Part shown: in pieces, positions 4,064 through 41,003 of the stretch
Layout of the letters: each line of letters begins with the position of its first letter
Position numbering within the stretch: the first letter of the stretch is position 1
Virus record (IMG/VR): IMGVR_UViG_3300045988_002471
Coordinates: 1-41,003 of that record
Reading direction: 5' to 3' (one strand)
Origin: a virus
Lineage: Duplodnaviria > Heunggongvirae > Uroviricota > Caudoviricetes
Length of the DNA: 41,003 bases
Notes under the pieces: generated by a model
The model's input: the letters and a program-made list of their open reading frames with translations, nothing else
Databases searched by the model: none
What the model was told of the DNA's origin: nothing
Position numbers and translations under genes: made by a program

Positions 4064-4355
4064 GGGGCGCATCCAGAAATACGCAAAAGAGCGATTCGAG
4101 GCCCTCGGTGGCCTCGTTCGAAAGCTGTCTTATGAGGGGCGCTCAGGCGCCCCCGACCTGCTGGTAATTCTTCCCGGCGGCATCGTCTGGTTCGTCGAGG
4201 TTAAGAAAGACGAAAACACGAAGCCAGACCCGCACCAGATACGTGAGCACGAGCGGATGCGTAAACGCGGTGCAAATGTTTTTGTAGTTGGTTCGCTCAA
4301 ACAGGTTGACGACCTAATAGCAAACTATTATAGTAGTCATACACCAACAATATAA
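4050..4355 (+). CDS. VRR-NUC domain nuclease (PD-(D/E)XK)
   Basis: 101 aa with GAPDLLVI...VWFVEVKK (D...E-V-K) core; RBS GAGGGG upstream. Confidence 0.7.
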   Translation: MSTPEGRIQKYAKERFEALGGLVRKLSYEGRSGAPDLLVILPGGIVWFVEVKKDENTKPDPHQIREHERMRKRGANVFVVGSLKQVDDLIANYYSSHTPTI

Positions 4356-16579: not shown

Positions 16580-16687
16580 TCTTTAATCCTTTGGTTAAGA
16601 GGTTACAGGTTAACGATAAATGCGCCAGACGGGAACCACCCGCTTTTCGTGTGCGACACTAGGCGCAAACTTATTCTATCACATTAC

Positions 16688-16716
16688 TTGCACACCCCAA
16701 TATAATAGGGTACTAT
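16688..16716 (+). promoter_or_regulatory. Promoter TTGCAC-N17-TACTAT with operator-like palindrome (16703..16720) driving the plus-strand island
   Basis: -35 at 16688..16693, -10 at 16711..16716; the ~38-bp block recurs at 34662..34700 and 35663..35700. Confidence 0.55.
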
Positions 16717-16746
16717 TCACTTACACCAACAATGAAGGGGTTTAAA

Positions 16747-22828: not shown

Positions 22829-22858
22829 AAAAGGGGCCGTAGCCCCTTTGTTTTTACC
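22829..22858 (-). terminator. Terminator-like hairpin after the capsid gene (AGGGGC-tacg-GCCCCT + T-run on minus strand)
   Basis: GC stem plus TTTTTAC just 3' of the capsid stop. Confidence 0.5.
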
Positions 22859-22868
22859 ACTAACTGTA

Positions 22869-23837
22869 TCACTTGTCCGCGTCGGCGATTGCCAGAGTAC
22901 CGAGGGTGTGTTTGTTCTCGGCAACAGCTTTGCCCCAGTTGGCCTCGGTGAACAGTTCTTCGTCCAGCGGAGATTTACCGCCGTTGGTGACATCCCAGCT
23001 ATAGCCTTTCAGTTTCAGGCCGAAGCTGTAATCCGCCTGCCAGGTGGTCTGGATGCGGGTGTTACCGTTGCTGGTATCAATGTTGCTGATAATATCAGAA
23101 GCATTATCAACGATGATGCCGTTGGCAACTACGGACAGGACCTTAGTCTTGTTCGGAGTACCGGCCTCGTACAGCGCAGGAATGTCAGAGATTACGTAAC
23201 GCTTGCCGAGAACATCGACAACCATAACGTTACCAGCAACGAACAGCTGGTTTGCGTTAGTCAGCGCTTTATCTACCAGCGTGTGGTAAGCAGCACCGGT
23301 CATGATGTCGGTAATCAGCAGCTGAGACTGGTCGCCGAATTTAGCGTGGCTGTTGTTCAGCACGTTCAGGGACAGACCCACGGTTGTAGATACATCGTTA
23401 ACCAGCGCGGCCTGACCAGATACCGCCGCAACAGCTGCACCAACAGCGGTGTTGAGCTGGTCTGCTAACAGTGCATCGGAGAAGCCTTCGGAAATAGCAC
23501 GAATCGCGCTTGCTGGGTCTTCGTTAAGCCAGGTCATTTGCGCAGGCTCGAACAGTACCGGTCCGAAGCCGCCAGCGACTTTAACGCCCACATGCTCGCC
23601 CTGAGTCAGCGCGGTAGCTGCCTGAGACTCGATAGTGGCGTAACGGTCAACGCGGCGTTTAGCGGAGGCAATCTGGTTAAAGAAAGACTCACGGGAGAAG
23701 TCACCGCGCCATGAAGCGGTAGACAGTACAATTGCGCCGCCGGAGGCTGCGTTAAACTGGTCAGTTTTCTGACCAAGCAGTTCGATAGTGGTACCGACGA
23801 TATCGTCGTTATAAACCTTCATATCTGACAGAGACAT
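22869..23837 (-). CDS. Major capsid protein
   Basis: 322 aa; follows scaffold; terminator downstream. Confidence 0.75.
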   Translation of the reverse strand: MSLSDMKVYNDDIVGTTIELLGQKTDQFNAASGGAIVLSTASWRGDFSRESFFNQIASAKRRVDRYATIESQAATALTQGEHVGVKVAGGFGPVLFEPAQMTWLNEDPASAIRAISEGFSDALLADQLNTAVGAAVAAVSGQAALVNDVSTTVGLSLNVLNNSHAKFGDQSQLLITDIMTGAAYHTLVDKALTNANQLFVAGNVMVVDVLGKRYVISDIPALYEAGTPNKTKVLSVVANGIIVDNASDIISNIDTSNGNTRIQTTWQADYSFGLKLKGYSWDVTNGGKSPLDEELFTEANWGKAVAENKHTLGTLAIADADK

Positions 23838-23843
23838 ATTCTG

Positions 23844-24470
23844 TTATCCTCGTTTGCCGTATTTGGCGTTAAGTTTTTGCTGAATTACGTCAGTACCACC
23901 GGCCCCGCCAGTAGAATTTTTGTTACCGGAAGCCCCGCCGCCGGTTGCTGCATCTGCTTTAATCAGATGCGAAAATGCTTTGTGCTCACGCAGATACTTT
24001 TTAAATTGCTCTGCGTCGGTGGTGATGACATTACCGTCTGCACCAGTGAACTTGGTAACAACGTCATCGCCGTCGAACTCGGTCTTGACCATCATAGCGA
24101 TGATATCCGCTGCGCTCTCATCAATCAACATGCCAGACAACTGGCTGATAACTGATTTACGTTCCGCGCCGAGGATACGCTCAGCCATTTTGCTAATCTT
24201 ACCGTCTTTCTCGGCGAGTACTGGCTCATACTGACTGCGCAACGTTTTCTCGAATGCCTCAAGTTCGCCGTTCTGTTTTGCGCGTTCCTGTTCGGCTTTC
24301 AGCTTCGCATCTGCGGCTTCTTTAGCGGCAGCGGCAGCAGCTTTCTTTTCAGACAAGAGTTTCTCGTTGTTAGCTTTAAGACCTGATACCAGCGCGTCAA
24401 CTTCTTCTTTGGTAAACGTGGTCTTAGTCTCTTGTTGTTCGATAGTTTCGTCTTTCACTTCTTCGCTCAT
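23844..24470 (-). CDS. Scaffolding protein
   Basis: Acidic, Ala/Lys/Glu-rich coiled-coil upstream of capsid; start set to MSEEVK (ATG 24470) after RBS. Confidence 0.55.
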   Translation of the reverse strand: MSEEVKDETIEQQETKTTFTKEEVDALVSGLKANNEKLLSEKKAAAAAAKEAADAKLKAEQERAKQNGELEAFEKTLRSQYEPVLAEKDGKISKMAERILGAERKSVISQLSGMLIDESAADIIAMMVKTEFDGDDVVTKFTGADGNVITTDAEQFKKYLREHKAFSHLIKADAATGGGASGNKNSTGGAGGTDVIQQKLNAKYGKRG

Positions 24471-24549
24471 CAGTATGTCCCCTGGACGTTGGAATCCGGG
24501 CCTCCCGGATTTACATGTCAAGAATAAATTATTCCAACATACAAGGCAA

Positions 24550-24813
24550 CTATTCCAGAATATTCCTCACATAATCCTGCAACATGAACACTTTCAGTCT
24601 CAACTGCCGTACACATTCGGCGTTCTGAACGTCGATAGCTAAATCCTCGTCAGAGTCGCTACTTGGCGCCGCCAGTTTGCACGGCGGCTGCATCATCGTC
24701 GTATCCGGGGATGGAATTGGCGTTTGCGACGGCGCGGGACTTGAGCAGGACGCGAGCATCATCGAAAGTGCACACGCTGCGACCCGGCGTTTTAATGTAC
24801 TTAACGACTTCAC
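24550..24813 (-). CDS. o-spanin (Rz1-like outer-membrane lipoprotein), overlapped with i-spanin
   Basis: Lipobox-like MMLASC then Pro-rich periplasmic region; starts inside i-spanin in a different frame. Confidence 0.55.
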   Translation of the reverse strand: MKSLSTLKRRVAACALSMMLASCSSPAPSQTPIPSPDTTMMQPPCKLAAPSSDSDEDLAIDVQNAECVRQLRLKVFMLQDYVRNILE

Positions 24814-25045
24814 GGGTGATTACCTCTGATTTCGTCTTGCCTTCGTTATCAGCGGCGGCGGCCTTTGATTCATCCTGCTGCTGCCGTTGTGTTTTCTTCG
24901 CTAACTCAGCCTGTGCTTCCTGCTGTTGCTGCGAAACGAGATTCGCCCGGCCTTCGTTCCAGCCGCTGTGATACTGGTAGATGCCGTGGGCATAAGTCAG
25001 GATGATAAAACATGCCCCCGCTACGACAGTTGCTTTAAGATTCAT
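24659..25045 (-). CDS. i-spanin (Rz-like)
   Basis: N-terminal TM helix ATVVAGACFIILTYAHGIY then Gln/Ala-rich coiled coil. Confidence 0.6.
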   Translation of the reverse strand: MNLKATVVAGACFIILTYAHGIYQYHSGWNEGRANLVSQQQQEAQAELAKKTQRQQQDESKAAAADNEGKTKSEVITREVVKYIKTPGRSVCTFDDARVLLKSRAVANANSIPGYDDDAAAVQTGGAK

Positions 25046-25071
25046 GTTTCCCCTTTCTCGATAAGTAAAGC

Positions 25072-25096
25072 CCCGCCTTAAAGCGGGGCGCTAGTC
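25072..25096 (-). terminator. Terminator-like hairpin (GCCCCGC-N6-GCGGGGC + U-rich tail) in the leader just upstream of the spanin RBS
   Basis: 7-bp GC stem then TTTACTTAT on the minus strand. Confidence 0.45.
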
Positions 25097-25168
25097 CTTA
25101 TCATTTAAACATAGAAACGGCGTAATCTCAGTAAACCAGTTACTTTTTACACAAGCAATAGAGTATGG

Positions 25169-25263
25169 CCCTTCCGAACGCGTCAGCGTAACTACACTCA
25201 GGACTTACGTCCCGCTCCGTTACCTGCCCGCGCCGCGGTCGCTTGTTCATACTTCACAAGCTC
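25169..25263 (-). ncRNA. Candidate structured leader RNA / cis-regulatory element, copy A
   Basis: Conserved blocks shared with 35876..35971; two hairpins at matching positions with different sequences; dedicated upstream promoter. Confidence 0.4.
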
Positions 25264-25269
25264 AGGTGG

Positions 25270-25298
25270 AGCTTAGCACATTTTCAGTGAAAAGTCAA
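25270..25298 (-). promoter_or_regulatory. Promoter TTGACT-N14-TGc-TAAGCT (extended -10) for element copy A
   Basis: -35 at 25298..25293, -10 at 25275..25270; same promoter at 35978..36006. Confidence 0.45.
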
Positions 25299-25361
25299 CT
25301 ATTCGAATAGTTTATTCCAACATTTACAATTATGTGGAATAACTGGAATAATCACAGGCGC

Positions 25362-25385
25362 TAAAAAGCCCCTTTCGGGGCTTAA
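25362..25385 (-). terminator. Rho-independent terminator after the Ig-like gene
   Basis: AAGCCCC-tttc-GGGGCTT with T-run on the minus strand. Confidence 0.6.
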
Positions 25386-25387
25386 GT

Positions 25388-25849
25388 TTATTCTGGCTTC
25401 GTAGCCTTCGCAGCTTTACTCACCGCCTCAACTCCAGTGGCATCAGTAACTTTAACGAAGTATTCACCCACCGCGTTAACCGTCAGAGACAAAGCCTCTT
25501 CCGGGGCGTTTACCACTTCCTTGCCGTCTTTGTACCAGGTCAGAGTATACGGCGCTTTACCTGCCTTAACTTCGACGGTGATGGTGGCGCTACCGTCGAC
25601 CAGCTCGGTGTCTTTCGGTTGCACCGAGAAATACACGTCACCTGCATCCGCCAGATACGGAATCTCGTAAAGCATACCCGCCGCGGGCAACGCAATGCCC
25701 GTTTTATCTGCAAACGGCATATCGTCTACAGGGGTACCCAGTACACTTTCATCATCAATAAACACCACGTTCTCACCAGAGCCAGACACGCGGGCGTACT
25801 GGACTACGCGACGTGACGGTACATCAGTTACTTTGAAAAAGCCCATCAT
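25388..25849 (-). CDS. Ig-like domain structural protein (possible head decoration)
   Basis: C-terminal TITVEVKAGKAPYTLTWYKDGKEV...EYFVKVTDATG; start overlaps upstream stop. Confidence 0.5.
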   Translation of the reverse strand: MMGFFKVTDVPSRRVVQYARVSGSGENVVFIDDESVLGTPVDDMPFADKTGIALPAAGMLYEIPYLADAGDVYFSVQPKDTELVDGSATITVEVKAGKAPYTLTWYKDGKEVVNAPEEALSLTVNAVGEYFVKVTDATGVEAVSKAAKATKPE

Positions 25850-26892
25850 TAATCCCCTTTCAGATAATCAGCAACACGTTTATCGAGTTCCGCCATCTGC
25901 TTAAGCGTGAGCGGATTCCCGAAACCATCTACAGATATTACGCGAAACTCTTCCGGAGATATACCGCTGTTACGGAAAATCTTACCGCGAACAGGGCCGA
26001 GGGCCTGTTCCTGGAACCACGCCGGTTGTTGCTTCAGGAACTCGTAGTAAGTGGTGTCTGCGCTTACCTGAGTACCACCATCTGCGCCTTTAGCCGCTCG
26101 TTTTGCGCCCTTATCGAGGAAGTCGAACTCCGAGCTAATTACCGGCGCAGTGGTACTTCGGCAATTCGGATGCGCCGGCGGCATCGGCCCCTTACCGATT
26201 TCCCACGTCATCCCGTCCCGGGCCCTGCAAATCGTACTGGTACGGCTGTCAAGCGTTGACACCCACTCATATTTCTCGATGATGTCGTCGTTCTGGCGGT
26301 ACGTCTCGTTACGGGCTTCGTTGGATACGTGAGACAGCGCAGTGCGGGTTACCGTCGCGGCGTTACGCTCAGAGATGTCCGCCAGCCCACCAGCGCCAAC
26401 AACATTCTTAACAATCTGCCGTGTTGTCTGACCTTGTACAAAGCCCATCTTAACGCCGGTTACAAGACGTGCTACTTCCGTTTCACCCCAACCTGACATC
26501 AGTTTAGTGAAATCAACGGGCTTGTCGCTTAACGATAATGGCTGAAACTCAGCAGCGGCCCATACCTGTTCCGCGGTAGGTGTAACAAATTCTGCGTTAA
26601 CGTTGGCAGTCAGCGTTTTTACGTTCCACTCAGCCTCATACGCCGCCAGTTCCTTGAGGTCTTCTGTCAGCTTTGTTTGCCAGTCACCTGTAATCCCTGT
26701 CAGTGCTTCTTCAAGGTCGCGTAACAATTTATTCAGTCGCGCGGTGCTGCGACCGTCGTCGCCGAATAGCAACACCTGCCGTTTGATTTCGTCCCGCATC
26801 TCCTGAATGAACGGCGCAAGGTCTTTCACTTCGCCGGATGCGGTGCGTTGCAGCCATATCTGGTGGCTGATTAGGGATGTCAGTAAGCTCAT
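25849..26892 (-). CDS. Head morphogenesis protein (Mu F / SPP1 gp7-like, putative)
   Basis: 347 aa; located downstream of portal; RBS AGGAGG. Confidence 0.6.
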   Translation of the reverse strand: MSLLTSLISHQIWLQRTASGEVKDLAPFIQEMRDEIKRQVLLFGDDGRSTARLNKLLRDLEEALTGITGDWQTKLTEDLKELAAYEAEWNVKTLTANVNAEFVTPTAEQVWAAAEFQPLSLSDKPVDFTKLMSGWGETEVARLVTGVKMGFVQGQTTRQIVKNVVGAGGLADISERNAATVTRTALSHVSNEARNETYRQNDDIIEKYEWVSTLDSRTSTICRARDGMTWEIGKGPMPPAHPNCRSTTAPVISSEFDFLDKGAKRAAKGADGGTQVSADTTYYEFLKQQPAWFQEQALGPVRGKIFRNSGISPEEFRVISVDGFGNPLTLKQMAELDKRVADYLKGD

Positions 26893-27034: not shown

Positions 27035-27688
27035 ATGAAACTGCAAACATTAGAGTTCCCTTATGGAGAAATCACTTTTGACCGTGAAAACTTTATTAAC
27101 GTAAACGAGCTGGTTGACCAGATGAACCGTTGGCGTTTAGACAACGGCATGGGGACAAGAGAGCTTCGCCAGGTCATGGCAACGGATGGCTTCAAGATTT
27201 TCAAGGAGGAATGCGAAAAACAACTCGGAATCGAGAATGCCATAAGGGCGACGAAAGGCCGAAACGGTCGCACCTTTGCATGTCTCCATCTGGCAGTATA
27301 TATTGCTGAGCAATACAGCGCCTATTTCCATTTCCTCGTTATCGACCGCTTTATCACACAACGGCAGGTAGAACTACGAAACATTGGCGCGGTGAGCTTT
27401 GTCGAGCTTAACGCTGCCGTTAGTCGAATGATTGAGCGCACGGAGGGAAGAATTGGCCACAGTGGACACTTCATACAGGTGGCTAAAGCGGTAAAGGAAT
27501 CCGTAGATATCCGCGACGTAACGGGTTTCGATACATGGGACTCTCAGGATGCGAAGACCAATCAGTTGCGAAGTGACATCCAGAAAGCTCTGGTGACACT
27601 TCTTGACATGGAGGCCGTTAATACATGGGGTGAACTGAAAGAGGCGATACCCCGGGTTGTGCGTAAATGTGCGGCTAATATACGTTAA
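27035..27688 (+). CDS. KilA-N domain protein
   Basis: N-terminal ...INVNELVDQ...GRNGRTFACLHLAVYIAEQYSAYFHFLVIDRF matches KilA-N/APSES pattern from memory; only plus-strand gene inside the head module. Confidence 0.6.
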   Translation: MKLQTLEFPYGEITFDRENFINVNELVDQMNRWRLDNGMGTRELRQVMATDGFKIFKEECEKQLGIENAIRATKGRNGRTFACLHLAVYIAEQYSAYFHFLVIDRFITQRQVELRNIGAVSFVELNAAVSRMIERTEGRIGHSGHFIQVAKAVKESVDIRDVTGFDTWDSQDAKTNQLRSDIQKALVTLLDMEAVNTWGELKEAIPRVVRKCAANIR

Positions 27689-32752: not shown

Positions 32753-32781
32753 AATATAATAGGGTCGATGGTAATAGTCAA
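32753..32781 (-). promoter_or_regulatory. Sigma70-like promoter TTGACT-N17-TATATT for the small-ORF operon
   Basis: -35 at 32781..32776, -10 at 32758..32753 on the minus strand. Confidence 0.55.
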
Positions 32782-32802
32782 CTAGTCATTACAGAAAATA
32801 GA

Positions 32803-32899: not shown

Positions 32900-33403
32900 T
32901 CAACCTTTCACCGCGCGCCCAATAGCCTCAGCCTCTTGCCACGGTTTACCGTCGAACAGCGCCAGACGCCCGGCTGTACGGCGACGCAGGCCAAGTAGTG
33001 GTTTGCCGTTCTGGTTGATGAACAGCGCCAGCTTAGCCCGCAGTGTTGCAGTATCACCAGAACGCAGTGCCTTGCCTGTGCCCGTAGTAGACGCAATCAC
33101 GCCAGCACCTGCGTTATACACCAGGTCACACACCGCATCGAACTGTGCCTGTGTAAGCGAATGGTGTGCTGCTGCGTCAACCGCAGCTACAGCCTTAGCC
33201 ATATCGCGATTCAGTAACAGTAAGCCCTGTCCTGGTGTGATGGTCTTACCTGGTGTTACGTCCGGCCCGTAGTGACCATAACCAATAGTCAGGTACTTCT
33301 CGTTCGGCGTAGCGCGATATGCAGTACCGCGGAACCCCTCGAACGCGGCGGTAAAATGCAATCCATTATCTGAAATATTTCGAGACACGCTTATGTCCTC
33401 CAT
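32900..33403 (-). CDS. Endolysin, lysozyme-like (GH24-type)
   Basis: FTAAFEGFRGTAY...TIGYGH lysozyme signature; start set to MEDISV (ATG 33403). Confidence 0.7.
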   Translation of the reverse strand: MEDISVSRNISDNGLHFTAAFEGFRGTAYRATPNEKYLTIGYGHYGPDVTPGKTITPGQGLLLLNRDMAKAVAAVDAAAHHSLTQAQFDAVCDLVYNAGAGVIASTTGTGKALRSGDTATLRAKLALFINQNGKPLLGLRRRTAGRLALFDGKPWQEAEAIGRAVKG

Positions 33404-33638
33404 ACGACAGCCACGCCTGGCGAATCTGACGCAGTGCAACTAAAGTGATTAATGTCTCAGGCAGCGTAGGCGACATGCTGCCCTGTAACAGGTGAATACA
33501 TCCGGCGGCGCAGACAATAGCGGTCAGGATATAGAGCACCCGGCCAAATAATCCGTCGTCCACGCTGGGATGATATACATTAAACAGCGATGCGCCACCG
33601 ATTGCCAGCATACCGCCGAACCAGAATAGCTCATTCAT
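33366..33638 (-). CDS. Small two-TM membrane protein (holin/antiholin-like)
   Basis: Two hydrophobic segments; start set to MNELFWFGG; overlaps endolysin start. Confidence 0.4.
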   Translation of the reverse strand: MNELFWFGGMLAIGGASLFNVYHPSVDDGLFGRVLYILTAIVCAAGCIHLLQGSMSPTLPETLITLVALRQIRQAWLSYGGHKRVSKYFR

Positions 33639-33939
33639 CAGGGCCTCCTCGACGTGCAATGTATTCTCCGGCGACGATACCGGAGAGGCGGGAATAGAGG
33701 GGCATCCAGAGAATAGCAATGATGAACCCAAGGCCCGCTATTTCGCGTTCACCTGTGATACCGAACCATTGTGCTGCGAGAGGCGCACCAAATACGGCGC
33801 AGGTGAAGCCAGTTGCAATAAAGCAGAAGCCGTCAATAGGGCCAGAAATAACGGACTTATGTTGCCTTAGTCCGATTACCCCACCAGCTAGTGCGGCGGC
33901 GAGAAGCCACCCCGTCACTGTTTCAGTAAATTTATCCAA
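33631..33939 (-). CDS. Holin (three predicted TM segments), TTG start
   Basis: 102 aa, hydrophobic segments, charged C-terminus; RBS GGAGGA 6 nt before TTG. Confidence 0.55.
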   Translation of the reverse strand: MDKFTETVTGWLLAAALAGGVIGLRQHKSVISGPIDGFCFIATGFTCAVFGAPLAAQWFGITGEREIAGLGFIIAILWMPLYSRLSGIVAGEYIARRGGPDE

Positions 33940-34637: not shown

Positions 34638-34661
34638 CTCTGTCTCCCCTCTCATTTGTGT

Positions 34662-34700
34662 AAATGAATAGTAGCCTATTCTATCTTAGTGTGCAAGTAA
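34662..34700 (-). promoter_or_regulatory. Promoter TTGCAC-N17-TACTAT with palindromic operator GAATAGTAGCCTATTC (34666..34681)
   Basis: Perfect 6-bp half-site inverted repeat overlapping the -10. Confidence 0.55.
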
Positions 34701-35634: not shown

Positions 35635-35662
35635 TTCTAAATTCCTTATGTCTCGTTTCGAT

Positions 35663-35700
35663 AAGTGAATAGTAACCTATTATGTTGGGGTGTGCAAGAT
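35663..35700 (-). promoter_or_regulatory. Promoter TTGCAC-N18-TACTAT with operator GAATAGTAACCTATTA (35667..35682)
   Basis: About 38-bp block nearly identical to the reverse complement of 16688..16725. Confidence 0.55.
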
Positions 35701-35875
35701 AATAGTTACGTTGCCGTTGTGATTCTTTCGTTTCTTAAAAGAGTACGCAACGCAGTGGGTGGGCGTTAGCCCACCCCAGCGGAGTGAAGTACTCTCTACC
35801 TTGCTCACGGCAACTATAGAAACTTTTAATTATCAGTGACTTGGATATTTAGGCGGGATTAACAATAGACTTTGA

Positions 35876-35971
35876 CCCTTCCGAAAGCGTCAGCGGAACT
35901 ACACTCAAGTGCCTAATGGCACGCGTTGCGTTCCCTGCCGCTCCGCGGTCGCTTGCGATATCTCACAAGCT
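35876..35971 (-). ncRNA. Candidate structured leader RNA / cis-regulatory element, copy B
   Basis: Shares conserved blocks with 25169..25263; hairpin GTGCC-atta-GGCAC at 35909..35922 replaces GGAC-ttac-GTCC of copy A. Confidence 0.4.
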
Positions 35972-35977
35972 CAGTGA

Positions 35978-36006
35978 AGCTTAGCATATTTTCAAGTAAA
36001 AGTCAA
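35978..36006 (-). promoter_or_regulatory. Promoter TTGACT-N14-TGc-TAAGCT for element copy B
   Basis: -35 at 36006..36001, -10 at 35983..35978; conserved with copy A. Confidence 0.45.
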
Positions 36007-36053
36007 TACCAGTAGCATCTTTTGTATTTTAGTAACTTTGCGTGGTGTTTTGG

Positions 36054-36082
36054 TTGCTTTTACAAAGTTACCGCCTTATACT
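36054..36082 (+). promoter_or_regulatory. Sigma70-like promoter TTGCTT-N17-TATACT for the plus-strand early operon
   Basis: Motifs about 30 nt upstream of the AlpA-like gene RBS. Confidence 0.45.
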
Positions 36083-36111
36083 TCGATACATATTACACAG
36101 GAGAGCGCGAG

Positions 36112-36282
36112 ATGACTATCAATGAAGTTGCAGAATTAATCGGCGTCACCCGCCAGACGATCAATAACTGGATTAAGAGTGGAAAGTTTCCTGATTGCAG
36201 CGTTAAAGTAATGGGGCGCCGTTTACCAGGAACATTTGACCGTAATAAAGTTGAAGCGTGGATTAAGGAGAACGTGAAATGA
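36112..36282 (+). CDS. AlpA-family HTH DNA-binding protein (Xis/AlpA-like)
   Basis: MTINEVAELIGVTRQTINNWIKSGKFPD...; start set to ATG 36112 after RBS CAGGAGAG. Confidence 0.6.
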   Translation: MTINEVAELIGVTRQTINNWIKSGKFPDCSVKVMGRRLPGTFDRNKVEAWIKENVK

Positions 36283-36626: not shown

Positions 36627-38912
36627 ATGTCCGATGTAATTTTATCCTACTCGTGGTCACGCCGCAACGCGCGGGCGGGAAAAAAGGATATAAATGTCAG
36701 AACCGCACACACGGCAACACTGGACGACCTGAAAGAGTTAATCCAGCCGCTCGATGCCGTTCGCGACGGGATTAACCCTAAGACCGCGCCCGGTTATATC
36801 ACCGCCGCGTGCGACTCAACGCACAGCACCGTAAAAGACCCGGAAACTGGAGACTTTAAGCAAGCGCGTAAAGGTTTTTTCTACCGCTGCGATGCGTCTG
36901 TAAGCAAATCGTCGCTGGCCTATCTGGATTTCGACAGCACAACACCGGAAGAGTATCAGGAAGCGGTGCGCCTGGTTAAGCGCAGCCGCTGGGCCATGTG
37001 CCTCTATACCACGGCATCACATACTGATGAGTCACCGCGCTTTCGCGTCGTAATGCCACTGGCCCGTCCGGTGGAGGGTGGTGACATCATCCGTGTTCGT
37101 CATGGGTTGCTGGAGCACTTCTTCAAAGGCATGGGTGCGGACCGCAGCGGGTTCACTCTGTCGCAGCCGATGTACCTGCCGCCGGTTGGCTCTACCGTTA
37201 TCTGGTCGCGCCGTAACGACCTGATTGACCCGGACGAATTACTGGAAGGCGTACCGGATTACGAGGTGAGCAGCGCCTCGGATTACCAGATACCGGAAGA
37301 ACTGCGCACTGCGTTTACTGATGCGTTCGAGGCACTGGCGTTTGAGTACGGTGGCGTCATGACGCCTCGTGGCCTTAAAATGCCCGCTACGCCAGAACAC
37401 GCGGAGAACTACAGCGACCCGACGCCGCGCCCGGACGACTTCCTGCTGTGTTTCCCGCGCGAGGGATATGAAGCGCCTAACGTAACAATGATTCACGACA
37501 CCGACATTACGGCGACCGAAGGCATGTCACCGAAAGAGGTGTGGAAGTACGCGTGCGATGCGACCGGGCTGCCGTTCAGTGAAGTCGCAGAGGCCATCGG
37601 TTGGGGGGCGCGTGAATCTGTCTCATGCAGCCTCGACGACCTGGAAGACGACGAGGACTCAGAGGAGGACGAGTTACCAGAACCGGTAAAGGCTGATTTC
37701 GTCGTTGAGGGGTACATGCCGTCGGATTGTATCTGGGATATTGTCGGGGAATCCGGCACGTACAAATCATTCTATACGCTGGGGATGATGTACCTGAGCG
37801 CCGCCGGGTACCGGTTTGCGGGGGCTGACACCCAACGTTGCCACCATTTCTATATTGACGGCGAGGGTGGTGCAGCTACACGAACACGTATTGATGCACT
37901 CGCGGCTAAATATGGCGAGGAAGGTAAAGATTATGTACATGTCATCGATATGGGCGAAATACTCGCTACGCATGGTGATAAAAAAATTCCAGCTCTAATC
38001 CGCAGGATGCGCGAAACCGCAGGGGATGAACCTATTGGCATGGTTGCCTTCGACACCCTTAACCAGACGCTGGCCCTGACGATTGATAAGTTCGACGAGA
38101 ATAGTTCATCAACAGCAATCGGCATGGGTAAAGTTATCGCCATTCTGAAAGAAGTACGCGATGCAACTAAAGCCGCAGTAGGCGTTGTCCACCATACGCC
38201 GAAGGGTGGAAAGAAAGCACGCGGCAGTGGGGCGCTGTATGCGGGTGTTGACGTGGAACTGACAATCGAACGTGCAACCGACCGTCAGATAAACGTATAT
38301 CACTCGAAATTCAAGCACGGGCCTCAGCAGAAGACGGTTGGCATGGTGCTGGAGTCGGTACAGTTCCGTGAAGCGCCGCCGCCTAAAGAATACCGAGCGG
38401 TTGAGTTCCTGGGTAGCACAGAGGAATACGGCACAATCGTAAACCTGGACCTGCCTGAACCACACAAGGCGCTTGTGTTGATGCCGTGGGGTTTCGAGCC
38501 GTTCAAAACTGACGAGGAGAAAGAGCGGGAAGAAGGGTTGACGAAAGAAGGTAAAGAAAATGTACGTAAAACCGTAGAGAACGCCGTCAACAGTTCGGAG
38601 GCCACGATACTCGCGGCGTTTGAACTGGCGGAAGGAACCTACAACGGCAACGAGGGCATCACGGTATCCGCAGCGAATAAGCTCGCGCAGTCTGACCCCA
38701 ACGCAAAGGCGTTTAACTCCAAAGAAGCCATAGAACGCGGGAAGATTAAGAAAATGGTTGAGGCTGGGTATCTTGTTCCGGGTACTGACGAAAACAATCA
38801 GATAATCACAGGCCGTTACAGGCTGAATACCCGGATAACGGATAACAAGATTCCGAAGACACTATACGAACCGAATGAAATGCTGGTGGTGACCGAGGAT
38901 GATTTGGAATAA
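36627..38912 (+). CDS. Replication protein: primase-like N-terminal region fused to RecA-like ATPase/helicase
   Basis: 761 aa; Walker A GESGTYKS and Walker B-like VAFDTLN in the C-terminal half; N-terminal primase assignment is inferred. Confidence 0.6.
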   Translation: MSDVILSYSWSRRNARAGKKDINVRTAHTATLDDLKELIQPLDAVRDGINPKTAPGYITAACDSTHSTVKDPETGDFKQARKGFFYRCDASVSKSSLAYLDFDSTTPEEYQEAVRLVKRSRWAMCLYTTASHTDESPRFRVVMPLARPVEGGDIIRVRHGLLEHFFKGMGADRSGFTLSQPMYLPPVGSTVIWSRRNDLIDPDELLEGVPDYEVSSASDYQIPEELRTAFTDAFEALAFEYGGVMTPRGLKMPATPEHAENYSDPTPRPDDFLLCFPREGYEAPNVTMIHDTDITATEGMSPKEVWKYACDATGLPFSEVAEAIGWGARESVSCSLDDLEDDEDSEEDELPEPVKADFVVEGYMPSDCIWDIVGESGTYKSFYTLGMMYLSAAGYRFAGADTQRCHHFYIDGEGGAATRTRIDALAAKYGEEGKDYVHVIDMGEILATHGDKKIPALIRRMRETAGDEPIGMVAFDTLNQTLALTIDKFDENSSSTAIGMGKVIAILKEVRDATKAAVGVVHHTPKGGKKARGSGALYAGVDVELTIERATDRQINVYHSKFKHGPQQKTVGMVLESVQFREAPPPKEYRAVEFLGSTEEYGTIVNLDLPEPHKALVLMPWGFEPFKTDEEKEREEGLTKEGKENVRKTVENAVNSSEATILAAFELAEGTYNGNEGITVSAANKLAQSDPNAKAFNSKEAIERGKIKKMVEAGYLVPGTDENNQIITGRYRLNTRITDNKIPKTLYEPNEMLVVTEDDLE

Positions 38913-39145: not shown

Positions 39146-39172
39146 GTCAATTATTCCTTAGTCAGTTGATAT

Positions 39173-39190
39173 GTGAATAGTACCATATTA
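39173..39190. promoter_or_regulatory. Operator-like site GTGAATAGTACCATATTA upstream of the repressor gene
   Basis: GAATAG half-site shared with five other sites. Confidence 0.45.
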
Positions 39191-39209
39191 ATTATTTTAG
39201 AAAAGCCCA

Positions 39210-39238
39210 TTGACACGTGAATAGTTCGCTATTATAGT
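39210..39238 (+). promoter_or_regulatory. Promoter TTGACA-N17-TATAGT with embedded operator GAATAGTTCGCTATTA (39219..39234)
   Basis: Consensus -35 and near-consensus -10; operator occupies the spacer. Confidence 0.65.
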
Positions 39239-39269
39239 TAACCCATACCAAACGAGAGGAGAGAAACAA

Positions 39270-40104: not shown

Positions 40105-41003
40105 TTCTTAAAGAACGCGGTGGAAATAACGATGTTCACGCATTACTGTCGCCGTCTGGGGCTAAAAAGTGGCTAAGCTGTGCCGCATCACTGGCCTGTG
40201 AGAAAGATATTCCTAACTCGTCCGGCAAAGCTGCCGTATTAGGTACAGCAATGCACACCATAGCAGAGATGCATCTTAACCAGTACATCAAAGGCACTGC
40301 GCTGCCGTTAGAGCGCGAAGTCGGGGCTTACGTGCTGGATGAAGGTAAAGGCCAGATTAAGGCTCTAATCAGCCCGATGAAAGGCGCGGTACTTATTACG
40401 GCGGACATGATTGAACAGGTGCGCAAGTACACCGACTACTGCAAAGCGATTATAGACGTAGCTACTTACGCTAAGCTGGAAATGCGCGTCAATCTTACAC
40501 AGATTCTACACCCCGGGTACAAAGTACCCGTTGAAGGTGAAGAAGGCGAGGAAGATGATTTAGAGACGTTCGGAACGGCTGACCTTGTTGCCGTTCAGGA
40601 ACTGGCTAACACCGACGAGTACATGCTCATTATTGGCGACCTTAAAACGGGTCGGCATCGTGTCGAAGCGAAAGAAAACAAGCAGCTTATGCTTTACGCT
40701 CTCGGTGTTTATCGCAGACTCAAGAGACGTTATAACATCACCGTTGTCCGTCTGGTTATCTTCCAGCCGTACGCGGGCGGTGCGTCGGAGTGGGACATCT
40801 CGGTTGAGGGACTTGAACTGTTCGCTAAGTTCGCACAGAAACGGGCGCTGTTGGCCCTTGATGCCTATTTCCGTGGTAAGAAGAACCTGAAAGCGTCGGA
40901 CTTCAAGCCATCAGCCGATGGTTGCCAGTGGTGCCGGTTCTCTGAACAATGCGCCGCGCGTACAAAGACGGTTAATTCTGTACTGGCGGAAGAACTTGAA
41001 GAC
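40101..41003 (+). CDS. PD-(D/E)XK exonuclease, Cas4-like / DUF2800-like, N-terminal part (continues as 1..436 across the junction)
   Basis: Own translation from ATG 40101 (ATGA overlap with upstream stop): GTADLV...IGDLKTG nuclease motifs, QLMLYALG (QxxxY) motif, N-terminal C..C and C-terminal CQWCRFSEQC cysteine cluster; no stop before window end. Confidence 0.7.
   Translation, partial: MILKERGGNNDVHALLSPSGAKKWLSCAASLACEKDIPNSSGKAAVLGTAMHTIAEMHLNQYIKGTALPLEREVGAYVLDEGKGQIKALISPMKGAVLITADMIEQVRKYTDYCKAIIDVATYAKLEMRVNLTQILHPGYKVPVEGEEGEEDDLETFGTADLVAVQELANTDEYMLIIGDLKTGRHRVEAKENKQLMLYALGVYRRLKRRYNITVVRLVIFQPYAGGASEWDISVEGLELFAKFAQKRALLALDAYFRGKKNLKASDFKPSADGCQWCRFSEQCAARTKTVNSVLAEELED
40949..41003. 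repeat. Second copy of the 55-bp junction duplication
   Basis: Identical to 1..55. Confidence 0.9.

Follow-up and report, generated by a model that had tools for sequence, protein, structure and literature searches.

The locus examined here raises the question of whether two overlapping genes lying among the head genes of a tailed phage, far from its holin and endolysin genes, encode a two-component spanin, and, if so, whether such a placement is unusual and whether the genes are regulated apart from the remaining lysis functions. The window (the whole stretch of DNA that was analysed, 41,003 nt) begins and ends with the same 55 nt, an exact repeat (1-55 = 40949-41003), and was therefore read as a complete, circularly closed assembly of ~40.9 kb; it is identified from its sequence as a complete Kagunavirus genome (Guernseyvirinae; a K1G/K1H-like E. 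coli siphophage). The spanin region was found to be 94-96% identical to that of E. coli Kagunavirus siphophages including L AB-2017, fKuEco01, K1H, K1ind1-3 and Sciku, with approximately 180 Salmonella Jersey-like phages as more distant matches. The genes of the locus, their translation signals and the surrounding head and lysis genes are as follows.

25849..26892, Mu F-like head-morphogenesis gene (profile match)
25388..25849, minus strand, Hoc-like/Ig head-decoration gene (profile match)
25050..25056, minus strand, Shine-Dalgarno sequence AAGGGGA of the i-spanin gene, followed by its ATG start (sequence reading)
24659..25045, minus strand, i-spanin gene, 128 aa (ORF, hydropathy, phrog_2536, AF2 helix)
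24823..24827, minus strand, ribosome-binding site AGAGG of the o-spanin gene, 9 nt ahead of its GTG (sequence reading)
24659..24813, minus strand, 155-nt stretch read in two frames, as the i-spanin C-terminus and, in the +1 frame, the o-spanin N-terminus (ORF comparison)
24550..24813, minus strand, o-spanin gene, 87-aa precursor with a GTG start (ORF, phrog_5672, phrog_1267, lipobox)
23844..24470, minus strand, head scaffolding gene, the next cistron past the spanins (phrog_206, 4.2e-43)
22869..23837, minus strand, Gp13-like major capsid gene (profile match)
33631..33939, minus strand, first holin gene (phrog_2359, 3.9e-29)
33366..33638, minus strand, second holin/antiholin gene (phrog_2508, 1.4e-33; same length as K1H gp47)
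32900..33439, minus strand, endolysin ORF (phrog_7, 6e-40; phrog_33703, 8.5e-48), whose true start is probably ATG 33403 or GTG 33388

The upstream gene of the pair encodes a protein with a single hydrophobic stretch, at residues 5-23 (Kyte-Doolittle 19-residue maximum 1.59), so that by hydropathy it has one N-terminal transmembrane domain (TMD) and a remainder that is predicted to be periplasmic, as in an i-spanin. Past the TMD the protein is rich in Q, A, E and K and has a lone periplasmic cysteine, C92. A single-sequence AF2 model of the monomer placed helices at residues 3-84 and 94-107, with pLDDT values of 75-89 across the first ~60 residues and above 70 only to about residue 60; the model supports a description of the predicted protein as a TMD plus a long helix, whereas a coiled coil is only a possibility. 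For the corresponding Jersey family, two helices and a beta-containing linker have been predicted (PMC6139136). The protein matched the PHROG profile phrog_2536 ('Rz-like spanin') at 1.5e-54, was 93.8% identical to its K1H counterpart (record L008, tblastn) and had homologues in 634 phage records.

The downstream gene overlaps the i-spanin gene by 155 nt in the +1 frame, and its product has the features of an outer-membrane lipoprotein precursor: a signal peptide with a basic n-region (KSLSTLKRR) followed by a hydrophobic core, and a lipobox, LASC, with the cysteine at position 23. Lipoprotein status was assigned by a PROSITE-style motif rule, with which ACALSMMLASC agrees. The +2 residue is serine, and there is thus no Lol-avoidance aspartate, the inner-membrane retention signal. 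The mature part comprises 65 aa, of which 8 are proline, and contains Cys45 and Cys67; together with C92 of the i-spanin, these predicted periplasmic residues provide cysteines for intermolecular disulfides. The o-spanin matched two PHROG 'Rz-like spanin' profiles (phrog_5672, 4e-30; phrog_1267, 5e-18) and was 86.2% identical to the K1H protein (L008, tblastn). When every ORF in the whole window was scanned for lipoprotein-type N-termini, it was the sole credible lipoprotein/spanin candidate.

These results bear out the first-pass annotation of the locus, which had been made from the sequence alone and which proposed an overlapped i-/o-spanin pair at 24550-25045: both minus-strand ORFs were recovered at exactly these coordinates and matched PHROG spanin profiles. 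The N-terminal transmembrane segment that it had noted in the i-spanin-like protein was seen as the hydrophobic stretch at residues 5-23 (1.59) and as the start of the AF2 helix at residue 3, and the Pro-rich, lipoprotein-like character of the o-spanin and its different frame were recovered as LASC with Cys23, 8 Pro and the +1 frame. A signal peptidase II (SPII) site was looked for in the o-spanin and the lipobox rule was matched, at Cys23. Its account of the surroundings was also confirmed, in that the pair lies between the Ig-like head gene (Hoc-like, 25388..25849) and the scaffold gene (23844..24470), and the holin and endolysin genes, which it had put about 8 kb away at 32900..33939, have PHROG matches at a measured distance of 7.85 kb.

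Conservation of the pair was assessed in a comparison set of 30 distinct spanin pairs, taken from related contigs and from database records. Of these, 28 retain the two frames, the 155-nt overlap, the GTG start, the lipobox cysteine and Cys45/67, the two exceptions being pairs cut by contig ends or by sequence extraction, and the two ORFs are therefore not considered to be chance open frames. Among relatives the lipobox cysteine stands at position 22 or 23 and the residues at -3 to -1 vary while obeying the motif rule (variants LASC, LSAC, LTSC, LNGC and LSGC). No Pfam model of the lambda-type Rz/Rz1 families was matched above its gathering score by either protein; sub-threshold matches were to LysC (PF23793; 13.7 bits vs a cutoff of 27, E=0.061) and to DUF2514 (16.9 bits vs a cutoff of 26, E=0.0066). 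The pair is thus one that is predicted to work like Rz/Rz1 and yet is outside the Rz/Rz1 sequence families of Pfam.

On this evidence the pair is very probably a two-component spanin of the Jersey/K1G family, forming the first two cistrons of a late unit and acting in the manner of Rz/Rz1. A reading in which the i-spanin-like ORF alone is real and the 87-aa +1-frame ORF is a chance open frame could draw on the GTG start of the latter, on its position mostly inside or just past another gene and on the annotation of a single spanin in some records; the comparisons effectively refute it, since the frame, start, lipobox cysteine, Cys45/67 and the C-terminal 40 residues are kept in relatives at ~72-74% i-spanin identity, independent PHROG families exist for the 87-aa product and its ribosome-binding site is correctly spaced. 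It is also very improbable that the products, although a lipoprotein and a small membrane protein, have a role other than lysis, for example in superinfection exclusion or as a head-assembly accessory. Such a role would explain the placement among head genes, which is unusual relative to lambda-like cassettes, and would sit well with the sub-threshold Pfam scores, but the TMD, lipobox, +1-frame overlap and cysteines that mark two-component spanins are all present, there is no other spanin in the holin-endolysin cassette and no other candidate in the genome, and the host is Gram-negative, so that disruption of the outer membrane is required for lysis. In addition, T4 pseT.3/pseT.2 offers a good precedent for spanins unlinked to the lysis cassette (PMC6139136).

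The identity and position of the pair were compared with published descriptions and database records. Kongari et al. (2018) defined overlapped-class Jersey i-spanin and o-spanin families of 27 members each, which include Jersey, SETP3, K1G, K1H and K1ind1-3, with a 155-bp gene overlap and invariant Cys45 and Cys67 in the o-spanin (PMC6139136). In GenBank, K1H gp06/gp07 are annotated 'Rz-like spanin' in the same slot, CPT_Sciku_008/009 of Sciku are annotated 'i-spanin' and 'o-spanin', and gp10/11 of fBC-Eco01 are the same two genes with i-/o-spanin annotations. The fBC-Eco01 paper places the spanins and the holins/endolysin at opposite genome ends (PMC9825357), the spanin of Golestan is ORF7/8 with the holins and endolysin as ORF66-68 (PMC7203180), and a related genome announcement also describes spanins that are genetically apart from the holin and endolysin. 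The spanin pair is therefore already known, as a Jersey spanin family member in its usual place.

The distance from the end of the endolysin ORF to the start of the i-spanin gene is 7.85 kb, and examination of the ORFs of the holin-endolysin cassette revealed no spanin of its own. The slot occupied by the spanins, with the head morphogenesis/decoration genes preceding them and the scaffold gene following, was found to be the same in Dhillonvirus SO-1 and in Pantoea phage AH01, a distant member of the Guernseyvirinae. Because homologues share the slot in SO-1 and AH01 and the literature describes the arrangement, the placement of spanins in the head module is, as judged from these comparisons, old, stable and documented; in this phage group the spanin genes normally stand in the head module, a long way from those of the holin and endolysin, and the finding, although correct, is an ordinary one. 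The head module thus encodes the outer-membrane lysis step in Guernseyvirinae and Dhillonvirus, so such phages should not be scored as 'spanin-less' from the holin-endolysin cassette alone.

The question of regulation was approached through the transcription signals around the pair, which are listed from the upstream side.

25363..25385, minus strand, canonical intrinsic terminator (stem followed by UUUUU, -13 kcal/mol) closing the portal/head-morphogenesis/Hoc-like unit
25299..25310, palindrome CTATTCGAATAG, perfect and directly next to the -35 hexamer, built from the half-sites of the genome-wide GAATAG/CTATTC motif
25270..25298, minus strand, predicted sigma70-type promoter, TTGACT-N17-TAAGCT, with a TGn extended -10
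25070..25089, minus strand, GC-rich 8-bp hairpin (-17.2 kcal/mol) followed by UUUACUUAUC, a weak U tract
24493..24511, minus strand, hairpin in the spacer that separates the o-spanin stop from the scaffold start, lacking a U tract
22830..22849, next canonical terminator, past the capsid gene

The predicted promoter at 25270..25298 is near-consensus, and a 'host promoter' is given at the equivalent spot in the fBC-Eco01 record. The hairpin at 25070..25089 lies 16 nt upstream of the i-spanin ATG, where a terminator is annotated in fBC-Eco01; its stem is kept by compensatory changes in relatives (GCCCCGC / GCCCAGC / GCCCTGC), and it is predicted to be a terminator-like attenuator. It may stop the majority of transcripts, and an antitermination step would then be needed for the spanins to be expressed. 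The hairpin at 24493..24511 is also conserved, with a compensatory change in relatives L020/L021; it was rejected as a terminator as it has no U tract. Transcription from 25270..25298 would accordingly pass through a structured leader and the weak hairpin to reach the spanins as the first two cistrons of its unit, and would continue into the scaffold and major capsid genes to end at the terminator at 22830..22849. Since no terminator stands between the spanins and the scaffold/capsid genes, the spanins probably start the late head operon and are, with somewhat less assurance than attaches to their identity, read as the first cistrons of a late scaffold/capsid unit rather than as a separately regulated mini-operon.

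The competing arrangement would be a dedicated mini-operon transcribed from 25298, gated by the leader and hairpin and ended or processed at 24493..24511, with the scaffold and capsid genes served by an activator-dependent promoter in the 78-nt spacer between spanin and scaffold genes. This spacer repeats ATGTTGGAATAA and then TTGACA, in the arrangement seen ahead of the leader promoter, and the maintenance of the hairpin past the spanins by compensatory changes is a further point in its favour. However, no acceptable -10 element follows the spacer TTGACA, a promoter scan found none in the spacer, the hairpin at 24493..24511 has no U tract, and the spanins of SO-1, translationally embedded within its head operon, have no promoter of their own. 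A dedicated mini-operon is consequently considered improbable, and a continuous spanin, scaffold and capsid unit is preferred.

Two repeated motifs were recorded in this region. An operator-like palindrome, GAATAGTnnnCTATT, is strongly over-represented, with 20 matches in the window vs 2.75 expected, and is known as a repeated motif in fBC-Eco01 (PMC9825357). A phage HTH protein (ORF 36022..36282, with a probable start at ~36109) is a candidate for binding the GAATAG/CTATTC palindromes, that at 25299..25310 among them. One 12-mer, TTATTCCAACAT, stands in identical form on either side of the promoter-leader-spanin block, at 24529 and 25312. It was considered as a possible insertion scar, but the pair is not significant alone (by estimate, the genome would contain ~2 pairs of this kind less than 1 kb apart), and it fits better into the repeated arrays of GAATAA/GAATAG half-sites.

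The leader between the predicted promoter and the i-spanin gene is ~200 nt long overall, with a structured core of ~115 nt, and a search of the window with the promoter pattern returned exactly two occurrences, both on the minus strand, the second of which is also followed by a leader core and a hairpin.

25156..25269, minus strand, conserved structured leader core, consisting of a P1 hairpin and a long P2 hairpin (covariance model, 138 bits)
35978..36006, minus strand, second copy of the predicted promoter (pattern match)
35863..35977, minus strand, second copy of the leader core (covariance model, 107 bits)
35757..35777, minus strand, hairpin following the second leader copy

The spanin-side leader was 96-99.6% identical in 179 of 181 phage records. 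In Salmonella phage S103 the leader was 99.6% identical and the i-spanin only 77% at the protein level. All leader variants folded into a short 5' hairpin (P1) and a long hairpin (P2). Two pairs in P2 occur with three Watson-Crick types each (C-G/U-A/A-U and U-A/A-U/G-C), and the apical stem was found in four self-complementary versions (GGGAC/GUCCU, CGGAC/GUCCG, GGUGC/GCACU and GUGCC/GGCAC); as these compensatory changes preserve pairing among the variants, the helices are taken to be maintained. A 36-aa ORF in the leader (25140..25250), which is a 'hypothetical protein' in Sciku and fBC-Eco01, was rejected as a coding sequence because many variants either cut it to 8-21 aa or have lost its ATG, and copy 2 does not contain it.

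The leader was compared with known RNA families and related phages. There was no match in Rfam 15 at gathering thresholds for the whole window, and a search with the two leader regions at E<=5 gave only chance-level matches at E>=1. A covariance model of the leader (R1) was then searched in K1H, SO-1, AH01 and HK022. K1H had the spanin-side copy only, copy 2 being absent, and no leader match was obtained in SO-1 or AH01, nor at the put sites of HK022. The best match in HK022 (14.7 bits, in the PR' late-promoter region) was treated as chance; it aligns the small P1 palindrome only, which there spans the -10 hexamer, and does not include P2.

The second leader place was present in ~54 of the 181 records, with a near full-length match in 20, and one contig had a copy-2-type core at the spanin position, a sign that the leader copies exchange. 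In the window, the ~115 nt downstream of the two promoter copies are 80-85% identical. Copy 2 heads a leftward operon that runs from 35.6 kb, via small genes, towards the holins and endolysin, and on the way from it to the holins lie two more promoter-like sites on the minus strand (35662..35698 and 34655..34700), both belonging to the GAATAG/CTATTC-operator class. Because a promoter-leader copy heads the operon towards the holins and endolysin, the arrangement argues for coordinate rather than independent control of the spanin and holin-endolysin units, which would share a promoter-leader type.

The first-pass annotation had placed the spanins behind a structured leader and terminator at 25072..25298, and both elements were located (leader core 25156..25269, terminator-like hairpin 25070..25089). 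Its suggestion that the spanins may on that account be regulated separately from the rest of the lysis cassette holds in part. The terminator after the Hoc-like gene, the promoter at 25270..25298, the leader and the hairpin agree with it; the lack of a terminator before the scaffold/capsid genes and the similar promoter and leader copy ahead of the holin/endolysin operon do not.

A more speculative proposal is that the promoter, leader and hairpin form an undescribed cis-acting regulatory RNA that times the late spanin/scaffold/capsid operon, whether as an attenuator or antitermination device like lambda PR'-6S-tR' or HK022 put, as a small RNA of ~200 nt or as an RNase III processing site; we regard this as possible, if on balance unlikely. 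The proposal draws on the 96-99.6% identity of the module among the phage records, even next to an i-spanin of only 77% identity, on the compensatory changes in its helices and on its absence from Rfam. If it were true, the copy at 35863..36006 would couple leader control to the leftward holin/endolysin operon of the phage studied here. The only item with some novelty is this structured leader, together with its duplication, which corresponds to no named RNA family. To our knowledge, nothing is known about temporal transcription control in the widely used therapeutic Salmonella and E. coli siphophages of this group, and the highly conserved structured leader with which the capsid operon begins, and which partly recurs ahead of the lysis operon, offers a concrete, testable handle on it.

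The proposed mechanism of lysis takes its steps from established Rz/Rz1 biology. The N-terminal helix of the i-spanin would fix it in the inner membrane, with its helical domain reaching into the periplasm, and the o-spanin, once exported, would receive its lipid at Cys23 via the SPII pathway and be delivered to the outer membrane. The C-terminal domains of the two proteins would then bind, and disulfide-linked complexes would build up late, caged by peptidoglycan. Following triggering by the holins (33.4-33.9 kb) and clearance of the murein by the endolysin, the spanin complexes would fuse the inner and outer membranes and lysis would be completed. As timing is set by the holin, spanins are needed only late, and any place in a late transcription unit is possible for their genes; for the same reason, co-expression with the head genes would meet the need for late accumulation of spanins.

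The pair resembles lambda Rz/Rz1 in comprising a predicted type II inner-membrane protein and an outer-membrane lipoprotein in the +1 frame, with periplasmic cysteines in both systems, and in a predicted mechanism whereby the outer membrane is disrupted after the action of holin and endolysin. There is no significant sequence similarity to Rz/Rz1 (Pfam matches being sub-threshold), and the gene architecture also differs, as Rz1 is fully embedded in Rz, whereas here the o-spanin gene runs past the i-spanin gene (the overlapped class). The layout of the unit is formally like that of lambda, in which PR', the 6S leader and tR' are followed by the lysis genes and then the head genes: here too a predicted promoter, a leader of ~200 nt and a terminator-like hairpin precede the spanins, which would open a late operon whose following cistrons are head genes. 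In lambda, however, the spanins are contiguous with S and R, whereas the holins and endolysin of this phage are 7.9 kb off in another operon, and no Q-like antiterminator was identified here. In T4, the genes of the two-component spanin PseT.3/PseT.2 likewise lie a long way from those of the holin (t) and endolysin (e), so linkage to the lysis cassette is not required; unlike the pair described here, the T4 genes have a 'separated' architecture and are non-homologous, and T4, a large myovirus, follows a different regulatory programme.

The closer comparisons are with phages that share the genomic slot. Dhillonvirus SO-1 encodes distant homologues (~51-54% identity over residues 76-112) in the same order of head morphogenesis gene, spanins and scaffold, but the start of its i-spanin gene overlaps the stop of the preceding head-morphogenesis gene and no promoter, leader or hairpin stands ahead of it. 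The K1H-type alleles have LSAC with the cysteine at position 22, where the present o-spanin has LASC with Cys23, and the differences from these are only allelic. The pair agrees with the Jersey family in the lengths of its products (128 and 87 aa), in the 155-nt +1-frame overlap, in Cys45/Cys67 of the o-spanin and in the location of the genes, which have head morphogenesis/decoration genes on one side and the scaffold gene on the other.

A promoter followed by a structured leader was found to occur twice in the window, both copies lying on the minus strand:

25156-25298 (-), promoter and leader, copy 1, upstream of the spanin, scaffold and capsid genes
35863-36006 (-), promoter and leader, copy 2, upstream of a leftward operon running towards the holins and endolysin

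The promoter (TTGACT-N17-TGnTAAGCT) is identical in both copies, and the leader of approximately 115 nt is 80-85% identical between them, with its helices maintained through compensatory changes; neither copy of the leader gave a match in Rfam. Among 181 phage records, 179 keep copy 1 at 96-99.6%. Only a subset has copy 2, which is absent from the related phage K1H. When two relatives were compared (L044, IMGVR_UViG_3300045988_039442, against L050), the spanin-side position of the former was seen to hold a leader core of the copy-2b type, which points to recombination or conversion of the leader copies between their two loci.

An ORF of 36 amino acids lies inside the leader (25140-25250, minus strand) and is annotated as a 'hypothetical protein' in the related phages Sciku and fBC-Eco01. 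It is probably not a gene, as many relatives, and copy 2 as well, carry a frameshift or truncation in it or are without its ATG. A possible homologue of the leader in phage HK022 was also rejected: the best match there to a covariance model built from the leader scores 14.7 bits and lies at 36886-36956 on the plus strand, in the PR' late-promoter region, with Q on one side and the holin on the other. It was judged a coincidence because the palindrome of the short 5' hairpin (P1) alone aligned, spanning the -10 hexamer.

The promoter-leader-spanin block is bracketed by two exact copies of the 12-mer TTATTCCAACAT (coding strand ATGTTGGAATAA), at 24529-24540 and 25312-25323; in both cases TTGAC(T/A) comes next, within 7-13 nt. 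Most relatives keep the downstream copy, and the pair by itself is without statistical significance; the repeat could be either a regulator site or the trace of a duplication. One further element lies downstream of the o-spanin stop, ahead of the scaffold start:

24493-24511 (-), conserved hairpin without a U tract

Its stem shows compensatory change in Salmonella-phage relatives (AUCCGGG/CCCGGAU versus CACCGGG/CCCGGUG), and the hairpin may act in processing or stabilisation.

The operator-like palindrome GAATAGTnnnCTATT, known from fBC-Eco01 as a repeated 'phage promoter' motif (PMC9825357), has 20 matches in the window against 2.75 expected. Operator-like palindrome sites were located as follows:

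441-470, 4306-4335, 16687-16723, 34655-34700, 35658-35698 and 39170-39239, operator-like palindrome sites
25289-25310 and 32772-32787, further sites

On both strands, GAATAGTnnnCTATT lies inside the spacers of sigma70-like promoters, and the -35 of the spanin-leader promoter is adjoined by CTATTCGAATAG, a perfect palindrome of related sequence. This pattern suggests that a single phage DNA-binding regulator may serve most transcription units.

An exact direct repeat of 55 nt was found at the window ends (1-55 and 40949-41003); the window represents a complete genome plus an assembly overlap, and the genome itself measures about 40,948 bp. One gene lies on the opposite strand between the portal and head-morphogenesis genes:

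27035-27688 (+), gene of 217 amino acids
27686-27719, GC-rich hairpin at its 3' end

In Sciku the same slot holds a gene with the annotation DNA polymerase III sliding clamp; a similar gene in the Dhillonvirus SO-1 has been termed a possible moron.

Two further putative promoters lie around copy 2:

about 36056-36084 (+), TTGCTT-N17-TATACT, a candidate promoter directed rightward and identified by eye
35658-35687 (+), weaker operator-type promoter

The former would serve an HTH gene and the primase-helicase operon and stands back-to-back with the copy-2 promoter (35978-36006, minus strand), while the latter faces that promoter and would produce an antisense overlap across the leader. Such a promoter layout would be reminiscent of early-left/early-right control regions.
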